Shown here: positions 21,599 to 62,902 of the stretch, piece after piece
Position numbering within the stretch: the stretch's first letter is position 1
How the letters are laid out: each line of letters begins with the position of its first letter
From: Zootoca vivipara
Lineage: Eukaryota
NCBI RefSeq assembly: GCF_963506605.1
Contig: NC_083279.1
Location: 29,264,001 to 29,328,000, forward strand
DNA: 64,000 bases
Reading direction: 5' to 3'
Translations under genes and position numbers: made by a program
The notes under the pieces: generated by a model
What the model was told of the DNA's origin: nothing
Seen by the model: the letters and a program-made list of their open reading frames with translations, nothing else
The model's database searches: none

Positions 21599-22720
21599 CT
21601 ACATTAGAGATACTATATTCTCACACAAGAGACTCCACTTGCCGTGTATCTTATAATCTGTGCATGTTCTCATCAAAGCATCTGCTACTGCAGTGGTTTC
21701 CTTTGGACAGAATTTGCTGCCAATAAGATGGTTTTTCAGTTCATCACACATGATTGGTGGCAACCAGAAAGGAGGCACGTCAATGTTGCAAGTTTCAATT
21801 TTTCCATTTTTTATATCCACATTTATCTTAATTTCAAGGCAAGATTGTTCATCAACTATATTAAAGGATGTGCTAATACTGAACTTTGGTGTTTTGCCAT
21901 ATAGCCAATCCCAGGATTGCAGTTCTTTTGCTTTGTTATTAATTCCAGGGAATTCTGTTTCATCAGCTGGATTTATTTCAACAATATGGTTATCAATTTG
22001 GTGGTATGCAGCATATTCTTCTGCAATGGCATCAATGAGCATCTCACAAGTTAAAGTAGGTTCTTCTTCAAAGAGATTTTTCACTAAGGCAGGTACACTT
22101 GGCGTGGCATTGCTTTTTATCCCATTGTAAGGACTCTTGAGCACAGTTGATAAAATGAATTTATCAGCACTGCAGAGCAAGGTGCAGTGGTGATAAGCAG
22201 CAGTCCTTCCTAATTTTGCAGCAGTTCCTGAGATTTTAAAAATCCCATTTAACAAGAGGTCATATCTCTCTGTAGCCTCCACATCTAATTGGGGCCGCAG
22301 GGCTTTCAATGCTCCAACCACTAGTTTTAAATTTTCCATTCTTTTATACTTCTTCCTATTTGTAAAGAAAGTGAGATTGATGTTGCCAGGATCATGGTAA
22401 ACTGTTCCTCCCCCACTTTTTCTTCTAGCTAGTTTTATACCATTCTGTCTCATGAATCTGAGGTTACATTCCTGCCAAGGATTCTGATGTCTACCAATCA
22501 CTACAGTAGAAGAATTTCTCCAAAGGAAAAGAATGTGTCTGTTTTCCAAATTCATATTATCATGGATCCAATCTTCTAAAGCTAAATTCTGATAAACATC
22601 CTGGGAAACAGACTGCAGGATCAGCCCTCTCGTTGCACATTTGAAGCCAGCAGCTGGAACTTTGAGGACATACCGGTAGTGTAACTGGAAGCATTTCTTC
22701 AGAGATGACTGGATTATCAT
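21599..22720 (-). CDS. LIPT1: Lipoyltransferase 1, mitochondrial (373 aa, single coding exon)
   Basis: Intact ORF with LplA-family motifs [59 protein letters not shown]. The splice acceptor TTGTTTTGTTAG ends 8 nt upstream of the ATG (exon starts at 22728). Confidence 0.97.
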
Positions 22721-23249: not shown

Positions 23250-24490
23250 AGCGTGCGTGGCAAACGTTCTCAGTTTTGCACAGCACCGCAACCACGCTGG
23301 GGAAATTGCAGCAGTTGTTTCTGTGGTTAGAGACTATATTTTTGCAGGTCCTGATGGAGACTAAGGCCAGGCTCTGCACCCGAATAAGCTTTGTTCCATG
23401 CTGGCAGGCCTGGCAATGGAGATAGAAAGGGCACATTCCGCGACCCACCCGCTCGAATTAAACTGAATGCAACCTTGCTAGGACAAAAAAAGGAAACCCC
23501 CGTCGAGCTACATGGGGCTCTGTGTATGGGACTGCCGCCCAAAGGCACCGACCGGATCCTCTCAAGGACAACTTACCGAGCTCCCGCGGGACGCCACCAC
23601 GAAGATGGGAAGAGCATGGCAAGAGAAGTCCCTTCCAGCTTCTCCTAGCGCCCCCCAATACCCGTCGCCCTACTTACTGGGGATCAGCTCCCTTTGCCCA
23701 CGCGGGACGTGCGTTAAGTAGTCAGGCGGTGGCCATAGATCTAGAAATCAGATGTAACGCGCGCAGATCTACATAGATCCAAGAAATAGTGAAGAGTCGC
23801 ACACTGTCTGGATTAGGTTGCTCCCCAAAAAGTGCGCGTCTGTTTCCAAAGGAACTTTTGCCACAGCTGGTACCTTTGGGCGGACACTCTTGCACAACAG
23901 CTACTCCAAAATCCTTTATTTCGCCATTTGTTTTCCATTGAGCAACACACATCCTTGTCAGAAGGTCCCGGAAGTTGCCTATACAGTACAGGATTAGCGA
24001 GGCTACAGTTTTTTTCGAAATGTAGTCGCACAAAATTCCTTCCGGGTGCGCACAATAGTACCCGCCCGTGAGTTCCTATCACGAGTGCTCGCTTCTTACC
24101 GGCAAAAAAGTGGCGTATTTCAGTGAAAAGTGAAAATCCGGACAGAAAAGTTGCTTTTGGCACAATTGTTGAGCTTTTTACTTTTTTGTCCAATATTGCA
24201 AATCGCAAAAAAGTCGTTTTTGAGCTATTTTTATGGAGGCACTGCTGACATGGGCAGCCACGCGTCAGTACTTTCCCGGGCATTTAGATGCATTCCGACC
24301 GGACACTGTTACAGAATGCAGTACTGTACTGTATTGCCTTCCGACCACTGTTGTTCGCTCCCCTGCAGCTGTTTCCATGGCAGTTGACGGCATTTTTCTT
24401 ACTAGCGGGCAGAGGGGCGGGAGTAGATGCTGTGGAAGAGCACTGAAGCGCACGGAAATTTACAGATAAAGGCTGTCATTTGCATCGGCA
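23250..24490 (-). promoter_or_regulatory. CpG-island promoter and non-coding first exon(s) of LIPT1
   Basis: CpG-rich. ETS CCGGAAGT at 23968-23975, YY1-like CGCCATTT near 23922, minus-strand donor-like GTAAG sites near 23576, 23677 and 24099. Confidence 0.7.
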
Positions 24491-24662
24491 CTTCTATGGT
24501 TTTGCCATTCTCTGTTGCCCTGAAGCAGGCAAACCAGCCCGACAACATGAGAATCCGTATCCAAAGATTTGGCTCTTAAACTCTGTTTTTATTTTTTCCT
24601 GAATATAAAATAGTAAAGTCTTATACCATAAATATAAATTGGCAAAAGCATTTTAACAAATG

Positions 24663-24938
24663 TCATTGAACATCCGTTATTTCCAAACCATCATTTTCTT
24701 TAACAAACTTTTGAGAACCGACTACATTATTAGAGCTAGCTTCTGAGGGAGTGCCTACATTATTTTGTATCCCTTCTGGTATATTTTTCCCTGTGTTTTG
24801 GAAAAAGCCAGTCATAGGCCCTAAACTGATTTCCTCAGTGTTTTGAAATAAATGGTCATCTGCGCTTGGAGTTCCAATATTTGCATCTTTCTGTATTATA
24901 GATACTGGTGTCTTCGTTTTACTACAACAGTTGCCCAT
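24663..24938 (-). CDS. C2orf15: Uncharacterized small protein, C2orf15 orthologue (91 aa, single coding exon)
   Basis: Syntenic position between LIPT1 and TSGA10. DDHL, FQNT and the C-terminal VKENDGLEITDVQ match recalled human C2orf15 (DDHL, LFQNT, VKESDGLEMTDVE). Strong Kozak ACCATGG, upstream acceptor (T)nGCATAAG near 25015, minus-strand AATAAA at 24588-24593. Confidence 0.85.
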   Translation of the reverse strand: MGNCCSKTKTPVSIIQKDANIGTPSADDHLFQNTEEISLGPMTGFFQNTGKNIPEGIQNNVGTPSEASSNNVVGSQKFVKENDGLEITDVQ

Positions 24939-25195
24939 GGTGTAGTTACCATGCAGATATCAGAAACAATGCAAAGTCAGTGATGGTGGTCTTCAGGGAG
25001 ACTGCTGCATAAACCTTATGCAAAAAAAAAAAAAAAACAACCAACAAAATACTATTATAATAACTGAAGAAATTCCGTTAACTAACGTGTGATTCTAGCA
25101 ACTATGCATTTTGCTGTTATAATAAATATTAAGATGCAGGAAATTTAACATTCATTCTATTTAAATGAACAAACACAAAGAATATGGCCCCTAAT

Positions 25196-25217
25196 ACACA
25201 CACACACACACACACAC
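25196..25217. repeat. (CA)n microsatellite
   Basis: Run of CA dinucleotides. Confidence 0.9.
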
Positions 25218-25437
25218 AACACTGAAAGTCTGCAGGACAAGTGAACAATATAAATAACAGTGGTTGTTATTAATGGAAATAGCAATACAATATTAACAGC
25301 AGGGTTTTTATTCAACTGGAACTCACTGGAACATAGTACCTATCAGGTGGGTGCCATTGCCATTATAAGAGAACAAGGCAGACATTCATGGTGTGTTCCA
25401 GCACCTCTTTTTATAGGAAAATAACACCGGTTAACAG

Positions 25438-25737
25438 TAAGGTAAAGGTACCCCTGACCGTTAGGTCCAGTCGCAGATGACTCTGGGGTTGCGGCGCTCA
25501 TCTCTCGTTATTGGCCGAGGGAGCCAGCGTACAGCTTCCAGGTCATGTGGCCAGCATGACAAAGCTGCTTCTGGCGAACCAGAGCAGCACACGGAAAAGC
25601 CGTTTACCTTCCTCCTGTAGCGGTACGGTACCTATTTATCTACTTGCACTTTGACATGCTTTCAAACTGCTAGGTTGGCAGGAGCTGGGACCGAGCAAAG
25701 GGAGCTCACCCCGTTGTGGGGATTCGAACTGCCGACC
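25438..25737 (+). mobile_element. Sauria SINE
   Basis: ggtaaaggtacccctgaccgttaggtccagtc...gactctggggttgcggcgctcatctc...ggtcatgtggccagcatgac...gggattcgaact. The same family recurs several times in the window. Confidence 0.85.
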
Positions 25738-27408
25738 TATCATCTGAATATTTAGTATACCCGCGTCCCTATCATCTGAATATTTAGTAAGTAAAATACT
25801 ATTCTGTGCCTAAGTTCTGTGTCTTAGTCTTTTCAGAAACAAGAGAAATGTTGATTAATATTGTTAGATATACTGTATATTAATACTACTATTCATATAC
25901 TATAATTAATATCCAGCAACTCAGTTAATTGTGTTCACTGAAATAAGGCATCAGTTTATTGCTTTGTTTGTATCATTTAAATTATTTGCATAGATGAGCA
26001 CTTTGTTGCCACATTTTTTAGCACAATAGACCATCCTTATTTCTGTCATGAAAGGAGCCAGTTATCACATGTTCTTGTTAAACCCCGTTATATCACTCTT
26101 TGTGAAGCGCTTCTTTAAGAAGGAAAATTATATTCTGCTGCATTTCCCCTCAATTCAGCTGATACCTTTTATTTACAAAGCATGTTGCTATTCTCCTATG
26201 TCTCCAGAATCTGTTAGATGCTCTACAGATGAAAACCAACTTTTGATTATCTGAATCCATGTATAAAACCTGTTGTTTAGTATATATTTGATATCAGTTC
26301 ACCCATCAGCTCAGCCTGTAAGATACTATGTCTATAAAATGTTGCTTGATTTATAAAAATATTTAAAAGTACAATACTATGTCCATAGTATTGCTGTTTA
26401 ATGTGCCTTGAAATTACAATTACTGTGCAATGTGACTTGAAATCCAGCCTCTATTTGTGAGATAAATGCCACAGAGCACCTCATTTTTCTATTGCATCTG
26501 AGAGCGGTAAGAGCAAGCTGTAATTGCTACTAACCTGTCAGAGATAAGCATCAAGAATGCAAGATAACTTGGGGGCGTCATGGAAACAGAGTTAATCTCT
26601 TTTCTCCATTATTTGATGAGCAGATTGCTGGTACTGGAAGCCAATCCCCAATGAGCATGTTCTCTCTAAACTGAGTTGTATGTTTATATGAGATACTTTG
26701 TGTTGACTAGCAGCAAGGAGAGTCTCCTGGATACAAATTCCCTCTGCTAAAACCTACAGGATGTGGAAAGGCATGAAGCATATTTCTCATCTTCCTTCAG
26801 CCATCTGTTTTGCAGAACTCAAGAAGGAACTTTCATGATTTTAAAGTGCTTATTATTTACCAATAAGTGGGATCCACAACAAAGCTGTCCATCTAATTGG
26901 GCATGCCTTCTGCTGGAACTCTGCTGCCCCTTCCCCTCAGTTTTCTGTTTCCATCCACCCGCCAATATGCTGAGCATGATAGTAAGTCCTCATTAGGCTC
27001 AAGGGAGGGGTTGCCACCCTTAAGCCTTTTCTTTTCTTAAAAGTTGTTATTTCCATGTGTATTTGCAAACCTGGTGGTTACCTAAAGCGTGCTAATACCT
27101 CCCTCTTGTTTGTGAGTAGTGCTGTTTTGCCTGCATCAAGAGTGGCACTTGGATAAACCAGTCTACAATCAAGAGAGACCTGAACGAAATGTTGCAGTGC
27201 TGTCTGTACTGGCTGAAAAAACAAAAGTTATAGTCATAGAGAAGACTCCCTGAGTCTTAATTCACGTGCATTTAAAAAAAAGTGCCCCCAAGTTTGATTT
27301 TACCTTCCTCTTTGTGCATAGGTGCTGCCATTTTGGTTACATTATGACAGGCACACAGCCCTAAAGTTGAGAGATAACATATAAACTGATGGTGGTACAG
27401 TATCTTTG

Positions 27409-27832
27409 GTTGTTTAGTAGTTTAGTTGTGTCTGACTCTTCGTGACCCCATGGACCAAAGCATGCCAGGCCAGGCACTCCTGTCTTCCACTGCCTCCCGC
27501 AGTTTGGGCAGACTCATGTTGGTAGCTTCGAGAACACTGTCCAACCATCTCGTCCTCTGTCATCCCCTTCTCCTTGTGCCCTCCATTTCCCCCAACATCA
27601 GGGTCTTTTCCAGGGAGTCTTCTCTTCTCATGAGGTGGCCAAAGTATTGAAGCCTCAGCTTCACGATCTGTCCTTCCAGTGAGCACTCAGGGCTGATTTC
27701 CTTAAGAATGGATAGGTTTGATCTTCTCACAGACCATGTGGGACTCTCAAGTGTCAAGTCTCCTCCAGCACCATAATTCAAAAACATCAATTATTCAGCG
27801 ATCAGCTTTCTTTATGGTCCAGCTCTCAGCTG
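27409..27832 (-). mobile_element. BovB/RTE LINE 3' fragment
   Basis: ORF 27560-27790 contains EISPECSLEGQIVKLRLQYFGHLMRREDSLEKTLMLG...RRRG, an RTE/BovB C-terminus. 9-bp TSD GTATCTTTG (27400-27408 and 27833-27841). Confidence 0.9.
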
Positions 27833-28713
27833 GTATCTTTGAAAATCACCCTAAATCTTGCGCTGACTCTGCATGTCTTTAATTTCCCTGAAATAAAATA
27901 AAAAATACCAAGGGCTAAAGAAAATTAATATTCGAAACACCTCGTGCGATAGCCCTGCGAGCCTTAGTACCCAAGAACCTGTCGTCGTCGTCGTCCCCTG
28001 CCCGCGCCTCCGCGATAGAACTAGGCGCAGCGCGCCCTTCCTTCCAGCAAGGCGGCTCTTCCCCCCGCCCACCGCCCGCGAGAACGGCGCGAGCGGCGGT
28101 TGACGCGGCCGGACGGAGTGCGCCGCGCGCTAGGGCGCCAGATGAAGGGGGCGGGGTCAACAAGAGGAGCGCGCCCCTTGCCCGGTTTTGTCTAACACAG
28201 GTAGCGAGAGAGCCGGAGGGGAGGGGGAGCGTCGCGGCGCCGTTGCCAAGGAGACGCCGCGAGGGGCTAGGGAGGCACGTTCATTGTGCCAAGCGCGGCC
28301 GAGGGCGGGTGGGGAGTTTACAAGCGCTCAGGGCGTCCTGGCTGAGGAGAATAATCAGAGGGGCCTTGAGAGACGCGGACATTAACTCCACCCCCCGCAG
28401 TTATTATTTATTTTTTTGCTATGGGGGCGGGCATGACAGCTGGCTGGCTGTCATCCCCTTCCTCACTAGGTAAACCCGCCCGTCACACGCCCCAAGCCGT
28501 GCGGCCGTTAAGGTGAAGCAGGAGGCGGAGGATTGTTGCCTCCGAGGCGTCATCGCTTGCGCTGGCCGCTCATTGGTCCGCCGGGATTGAGAGGGAAAAG
28601 GTGGCGAAGGAGCGGGCGAGGCTGAGAAAGCTGAGCGGAGGAGCGACCGAGTGAGAGAGAGAGTGTGGGGGAAAGGCAGGAGTCTTTCCGAAGCCGACAG
28701 CTTAGCTGCTGTC

Positions 28714-62902
<34,189 letters not shown>

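Follow-up and report, generated by a model that had tools for sequence, protein, structure and literature searches.

A lizard ortholog of C2orf15 with a predicted N-terminal lipid anchor and a conserved C-terminal tail

Introduction

The C2orf15 protein is raised in invasive pituitary tumors, and its knockdown reduces invasion, with no mechanism given in the consulted parts of that report (PMC11731147); its accession is also listed in an endothelial proteome (PMC13752542). Judged by title and the start of the abstract, none of the publications naming C2orf15, mostly non-subscription literature, concerns lipidation or a tail motif. A search combining C2orf15 with terms on lipids or TPR gave no match naming the gene among the matches listed, and a search by the identifiers of the family found nothing further in mostly non-subscription literature.

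The closest described systems concern the two ends of the protein separately. Myristate-plus-palmitate N termini are described for a heptapeptide variant of G-alpha-o (MGNC-Nt7) and for flotillin-2 (PMC9018777). In the engineered MGNC heptapeptide, Cys4 is palmitoylated and the peptide is targeted to the plasma membrane, and the model peptide is palmitoylated poorly on Cys5; the same source gives the N-myristoyltransferase (NMT) motif as M-G-[^DEFRWY]-X-[^DEKR]-[ACGST]-[KR] (PMC9018777). PLGRKT, a 147-aa protein that is reported at mitochondria and the cell surface and starts MGFIFSKS, is myristoylated according to labeling and mass spectrometry of myristoyl-GFIFSK (PMC4200515, PMC10752898, PMC10696250). 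The pair S6-K7 is described as compensating for an unfavorable residue 3, in that case Lys3 (bioRxiv 2021.06.22.449375). With respect to C termini, the ligands of dicarboxylate-clamp TPR proteins include HSP90 (MEEVD) and HSP70 (IEEVD) as well as TOMM20 (EDDVE) (PMC6212638, PMC3534021). AIP structures show the MEEVD Met sitting in a hydrophobic pocket and the terminal Glu of TOMM20 being accommodated (PMC3534021), and ligands ending in Glu (Tom20 and p23) are weaker in competition assays, with p23 not being pulled down (PMC6212638).

Identity and gene structure

The initial annotation of the window, which is the whole 64,000-nt stretch of Zootoca vivipara DNA analyzed here, described a 91-aa ORF at 24663 to 24938 that starts MGNCCSKTK and contains two pairs of repeated motifs, and it assigned this ORF to C2orf15. 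The ORF and both repeat pairs were recovered when the sequence was read again, with the protein ending VKENDGLEITDVQ; the frame runs from 24938 down to 24663 on the minus strand, the strand not being given in the annotation. The assignment as an ortholog stands. The protein matches Pfam PF17701 (DUF5547) with an E value of 7e-11 and 42.5 bits (cut-off, 25) over profile positions 32 to 121 of 122, aligns end to end with human C2orf15 (CB015_HUMAN) at 40 identical positions of 96 (42%), and gives a single match in the genome (G000). The lizard gene is a single-copy ortholog of C2orf15, a known gene without known mechanism, and what had been called an undescribed functional module is a known, named, and uncharacterized family. 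The human protein had been described in the annotation as 91 aa long, with the start MGFSLS and a particular end, and the database entry agrees (MGFSLS...VKESDGLEMTDVE). The human and lizard proteins share this length, an MG...SK start, three conserved blocks, and LIPT1 as the neighboring gene. They differ in that the lizard protein has Asn3-Cys4-Cys5 where the human protein has Phe-Ser-Leu, lacks KKIRLE, carries a 5-residue insertion, and ends in Gln instead of Glu.

The homology search across amniotes that had been proposed earlier found relatives in lizards, turtles, marsupials, and placentals. The profile search gave 86 relatives among 317 candidates, including named C2orf15 proteins from turtles, marsupials, and placentals and Podarcis entries without a gene name. 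Bird, crocodilian, monotreme, and amphibian names were absent from these 86, which does not prove loss since the search was seeded by words. The 89 proteins in total correspond to 86 distinct cores after the trimming of N-terminal extensions. A tree built from 48 selected full-length rows groups P0003, P0005, and P0006 with Podarcis at a support of 100/99. Squamate-like proteins are defined here as those of Podarcis together with P0003, P0005, and P0006 and the fragment P0007, which was outside the tree, the P entries having no species assigned; all rows left after the squamate-like and turtle ones are set apart count as mammalian, even if unnamed. A search of the ESM Atlas gave best matches of 0.83 and 0.84, both unnamed and taken as leads only, and a search of solved structures with the C2orf15 protein gave one match with an E value of 0.93.

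The coding sequence occupies a single exon. Its putative start codon is the first in-frame ATG after a stop and lies in the context ACACC-ATG-G, with A at -3 and G at +4. The surrounding open frame comprises just 98 codons; therefore, no longer in-frame N-terminal form is possible. Two upstream ATGs are present in the predicted coding exon, one at 24950 to 24952 (minus strand, out of frame, 14 nt before the ORF start), which has T at -3 and opens an 18-codon frame overlapping the ORF, and a second that opens a 5-codon frame. A splice acceptor of the exon, a T tract with AG at 25015 and 25016, is predicted at 25015 to 25037 (minus strand). The X1 contig spans 24592 to 25014 plus 160 nt from elsewhere, which matches the predicted acceptor, although 25015 to 25054 was skipped by the comparison. 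A candidate poly(A) signal, AATAAA, lies on the same strand at 24588 to 24593, about 70 nt past the stop codon.

Probable start site and predicted N-terminal lipid anchor

Codons 1 to 7 (MGNCCSK, 24918 to 24938, minus strand) form a predicted N-myristoylation signal with palmitoylatable Cys4/Cys5, on the basis of the sequence, the published motif (PMC9018777), and conservation. Among the 87 ATG-initiated ORFs of at least 60 aa in the window, the C2orf15 ORF alone has the full NMT motif. The pattern MG-x-x-x-S-K is found, among rows with an aligned start, in 66/70 mammalian, 7/7 turtle, and 4/6 squamate-like proteins; the squamate-like exceptions are MGNCCGK, which still fits the NMT motif, and MGNCCNT (P0003), which has lost Ser6 and Lys7 and does not fit it. 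Since the pattern is kept across clades, N-myristoylation of C2orf15 is likely family-wide. Phe occupies position 3 in all seven turtles and in 92% of mammalian rows, where it is mainly replaced by Tyr, and Ser6 and Lys7 are 96% conserved in mammals. The lizard MGNCCSK fits the NMT motif, whereas the turtle and mammalian orthologs with Phe3 do not. The exclusion of Phe3 is not absolute because PLGRKT, with GFIFSK, is myristoylated. The start of PLGRKT is nearly that of turtle (MGFCFSKS) and mammalian (MGFSLSKS) C2orf15, but in the comparison of the first 30 residues, the signal alone is comparable. Likewise, the MGNC start is common to the lizard protein and MGNC-Nt7, but C2orf15 has no homology to MGNC-Nt7 or flotillin-2 beyond the signal, and mammalian C2orf15 lacks the cysteine.

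The lipid-anchor claim of the initial annotation survives in part. A myristoylation signal is likely, but dual acylation is not a property of the family: Cys occurs at positions 3 to 6 in 6/6 squamate-like and 7/7 turtle rows and in 0/70 mammalian rows. Myristoylation would thus probably be the ancestral state, with dual acylation restricted to reptiles. C2orf15 was not found in the accessible supplements of two human myristoylome studies (PMC4200515, PMC10696250), where low expression could explain its absence, and the main text of PMC4550359, as far as consulted, has no C2orf match.

N-terminal extensions of 12 to 58 aa are present in 31 of the 89 entries (P0009, P0019-P0086, and P0188), and human C2orf15 has database entries of both 125 aa and 91 aa. 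These extensions seem to change reading frame, their identity is 49%, compared with 81% for the core, and they look like translated 5' untranslated regions. The reptile orthologs place the true start of C2orf15 at Met-Gly, as we infer, and the extensions in the database entries would mask Gly2 from predictors.

Conserved blocks, internal repeats, and predicted disorder

The conservation of C2orf15 across amniotes that had been claimed is borne out by the alignment, in which the protein is kept in reptiles and mammals and conservation is concentrated in three blocks (residues 1 to 10, 28 to 52, and 77 to 91). Identities over five successive blocks are 0.46, 0.23, 0.43, 0.19, and 0.59 between squamates and placentals (P0006 left out) and 0.69, 0.22, 0.46, 0.33, and 0.75 between turtles and placentals. 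Residues 77 to 91 (24666 to 24710, minus strand; KFVKENDGLEITDVQ) are the best-conserved block between clades, in agreement with the conserved C-terminal motif proposed earlier, and show an identity of 0.67 between squamates and turtles (P0006 left out). In the central block, T43, F46, and Q47 are invariant in 48/48 aligned rows. At alignment columns 50 to 56, mammals have KKIRLE and most turtles have KIKF, and the segment is absent from the squamate-like proteins; we take KKIRLE to be NLS-like (c-Myc type) and KIKF to be RVxF-like.

The two repeat pairs noted in the initial annotation have different histories. The pair LFQNTEE/FFQNTGK, within residues 28 to 57 (24768 to 24857, minus strand), is an old tandem duplication with a period of 15 residues, as judged from self-match statistics on the aligned sequences. 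In all four clade profiles, the strongest self-match falls at an offset of 15 residues (turtle, P = 0.014; placental, P = 0.007; marsupial, P = 0.095; squamate, P = 0.32), as it does in 74 of 89 cores, which are related and non-independent; in the lizard protein alone, the pair is not significant (P = 0.48). The pair NIGTPS (residues 20 to 25, 24864 to 24881) and NVGTPS (24744 to 24761), both on the minus strand, is the best self-match in the lizard protein (P = 0.033, 1,000 shuffles). It was rejected as a repeat of the family: the alignment has the pair in Podarcis alone, and its codons have diverged, with 11 of 18 nt identical and Ser encoded by AGC in one copy and TCA in the other. The pair is probably incidental.

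The protein is predicted to be disordered, as had been proposed. AlphaFold2 with an input of 48 sequences gave a low pLDDT throughout (55.1, with zero residues at or above 70) and a pTM of 0.12. The lizard protein has a net charge of -5 and no hydrophobic segment, with no 19-residue window of positive hydropathy, and its charge-hydropathy value lies at the boundary between order and disorder (0.437 versus 0.433).

C-terminal tail and a possible TPR-clamp ligand

Turtle and mammalian C2orf15 proteins typically end MTDVE, and the lizard protein ends ITDVQ. Nearly all rows share the position of the stop codon, suggesting a motif that depends on a free C-terminal end. A PDZ ligand, which needs a hydrophobic last residue, was set aside because that of C2orf15 is not hydrophobic, and the dynein-light-chain motif TQV was set aside for the Pro found in most reptiles. 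Published criteria for clamp-TPR ligands are a terminal Asp or Glu, a bulky hydrophobic residue at -1, two acids, and no Lys or Arg in the last five residues (PMC6212638). Tails of this kind are found in 7/7 turtles, in 64/72 mammals, and in 0/7 squamate-like proteins, the lizard ITDVQ included, compared with about 0.8% of random C termini as computed with assumed residue frequencies; the idea was formed post hoc, once the alignment had been seen. Of the eight mammalian exceptions, three end DME, and the ends of the other five are truncated, extended, or unrelated. Like HSP90, MTDVE carries Met at -4, and like TOMM20 it ends DVE, at a conserved free C terminus; it differs from the described ligands in having Thr at -3, while the lizard tail lacks the terminal acid. 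Since the Met pocket and the accepted terminal Glu are both seen in AIP structures, MTDVE is, by analogy, a plausible hybrid ligand of the HSP90/TOMM20 type. Neither C2orf15 nor TDVE was found in the accessible contents of Table S1 of PMC6212638, in which no length of 91 or 125 was visible.

Two further observations concern tails and TPR sequences. The squamate-like P0006 and P0007 end KKVIAWQ, in a frameshift-like manner and without the conserved tail, which may be lost in one lineage. Elsewhere in the genome, TPR exons are near-identical on two contigs, C18 and C19 (L002-L009), and may represent a sex-chromosome pair or a haplotype duplicate; these exons are presumably OGT-like.

Proposed mechanism and alternative explanations

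Taken as a whole, C2orf15 is on balance probably a disordered, lipid-tethered protein whose conserved C-terminal motif is offered to a partner, which upholds in outline the anchor-and-tail model of the initial annotation. Translation would initiate at Met-Gly, and NMT would myristoylate Gly2, a step that is very likely for the lizard protein and likely in mammals. In reptiles, a DHHC enzyme would then palmitoylate Cys4, which is reasonably probable and would result in plasma-membrane or endosomal residence, and mammalian C2orf15 would have a weaker, exchangeable anchor consisting of myristate alone. A flexible linker of about 65 residues would extend the last 15 residues to the partner. The best candidate for the class of partner in turtles and mammals is a dicarboxylate-clamp TPR protein, although we hold this assignment at low confidence; such binding would be weaker or redirected in lizards because of the terminal Gln. 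A more specific version, also speculative, is that C2orf15 may be a myristoylated mimic of the HSP90/HSP70 C terminus whose MTDVE recruits or sequesters clamp-TPR co-chaperones at membranes, possibly in ciliated cells, with both ends rewired in squamates through the gain of a stronger myristate-palmitate anchor and the loss of the terminal acid. If the tail is a TPR-clamp ligand, C2orf15 would give the HSP90 co-chaperone network a minimal membrane adaptor or decoy, and the lizard variant would be a natural control. What is new here is a testable reading of the sequences, namely, likely family-wide myristoylation combined with an HSP90/TOMM20-like tail altered in squamates.

The lipid anchor could instead be a reptile refinement of an ancestral G-F-x-x-S-K start that is mostly unmyristoylated and acts as a Gly N-degron or acetylation site in a soluble, short-lived protein. 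We consider this unlikely, although the Phe3 of turtles and mammals, with Tyr next, would suit such a start, as the NMT motif excludes both F and Y. The receptors ZYG11B and ZER1 favor an aromatic residue in second position. Starts with an unmyristoylated Gly undergo degradation via ZYG11B/ZER1 or DCAF10 (PMC12775124). However, the conserved Ser6 and Lys7 are NMT determinants not obviously needed by a degron, and PLGRKT is myristoylated with the same Phe. A working part in the central duplicated block, with the protein being soluble or shuttling and its basic motif serving as a nuclear signal or a phosphatase-1 docking site, would agree with the three invariant residues of that block, but the basic motif is missing in the squamate-like proteins, its turtle and mammalian versions differ, and both termini are more conserved, which makes this explanation quite improbable.

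The probability is lower still that the ORF acts in cis, modulating LIPT1 as a conserved upstream frame or as a read-through unit, with the peptide being secondary. The ORF is on the LIPT1 strand, about 0.7 kb above the first exon of LIPT1, and LIPT1-orientation reads (24214 to 24615) and contigs (24272 to 24554) extend beyond the first AATAAA. Against this, LIPT1 has its own first exon and is covered in runs with zero depth at the ORF, the conservation is that of a protein and is block-wise at both ends, and the human protein gives a signal in tumor proteomics, according to the consulted parts of that study (PMC11731147). The least probable explanation, and a highly doubtful one, is that the frame is decaying or nonfunctional in lizards. 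It would account for the zero depth of raw reads in three same-species runs, the longer squamate branches, and the different C terminus of P0006 and P0007, but three Podarcis-type sequences as well as P0003 and P0005 keep an intact frame with a common start and stop, and a good start context, the acceptor, and the AATAAA are present.

Neighboring genes, promoter, and expression

The downstream neighbor is a lipoyltransferase gene whose coding sequence lies at 21599 to 22720 on the minus strand (Pfam PF21948, E = 6.5e-53), with a first exon at 23678 to about 23964 supported by reads and a splice joint between 22728 and 23678. An exon of a neighboring coiled-coil gene lies on the plus strand at 28540 to 28773, with a GT donor at 28774, and the pieces of the X1, X3, and X4 contigs all end at 28773. 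Pfam detects MIT/MIT_C domains in the neighborhood, and the plus-strand gene gave just weak coiled-coil matches. From the human gene order, we take the neighbors to be LIPT1, MITD1, and TSGA10 (the plus-strand gene), which would place C2orf15 between LIPT1 and TSGA10.

A CpG-island-like region at 27851 to 28800 is a candidate shared promoter with a putative link to the ORF, and a promoter shared by C2orf15 and TSGA10 is plausible; no join between the ORF exon and this island, 3 kb away, was seen in the reads and contigs examined. The island contains an X-box-like site, GTTGCCAAGGAGAC (28242 to 28255, plus strand), found with relaxed patterns only. This site is the only exact match to a post hoc pattern, which has 8 strand matches at one mismatch or fewer versus 1.87 expected. 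A tighter relaxed pattern gave three sites (532, 23842, and 28242; 6 strand matches versus 0.47 expected), all inside or beside CpG islands, and two strict consensus patterns miss the site at 28242. No consensus string was found in the consulted part of PMC5024701. A second X-box-like site (23842 to 23855) lies inside the first exon of LIPT1, and a further site is at 61841. An RFX2 ChIP peak is present at mouse Tsga10, for which the knockout data consulted list no change in expression (PMC4498915). Human C2orf15 belongs to the motile-cilia coexpression cluster of 1/4 tissue groups (fallopian tube/endocervix), not testis, and human TSGA10 belongs to that of 4/4 (PMC7331728), so the case for a ciliary or sperm-membrane role of C2orf15 is weak.

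Raw RNA reads labeled as the same species (X11 to X13, about 6% of each run) have zero depth at 24616 to 25285 and cover LIPT1 up to 55-fold, and X13 contains neither the plus-strand exon nor the ORF. Contigs of runs X1 to X4, from relatives and presumed to be RNA, cover the ORF at a depth of 2 to 6; these four runs are a biased choice, found because they contain the ORF stretch. X1, X3, and X4 contain the plus-strand exon and nothing at 25764 to 26354 or 27931 to 28521, which fits an RNA origin. Between the AATAAA of the ORF and the first exon of LIPT1 (24214 to 24615), low depth in LIPT1 orientation may reflect a longer 3' end or read-through. High-copy repeat fragments, which we take to be SINE/LINE-like, lie at 25338 to 25738 and about 27400 to 27830, in the interval from the ORF to the CpG island, and are swamped by repeat reads. 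The plus-strand gene carries in its first intron, at 29287 to 29521, an exact 118-nt tandem duplicate with a period of 117, which may be a recent duplication or an assembly artifact.
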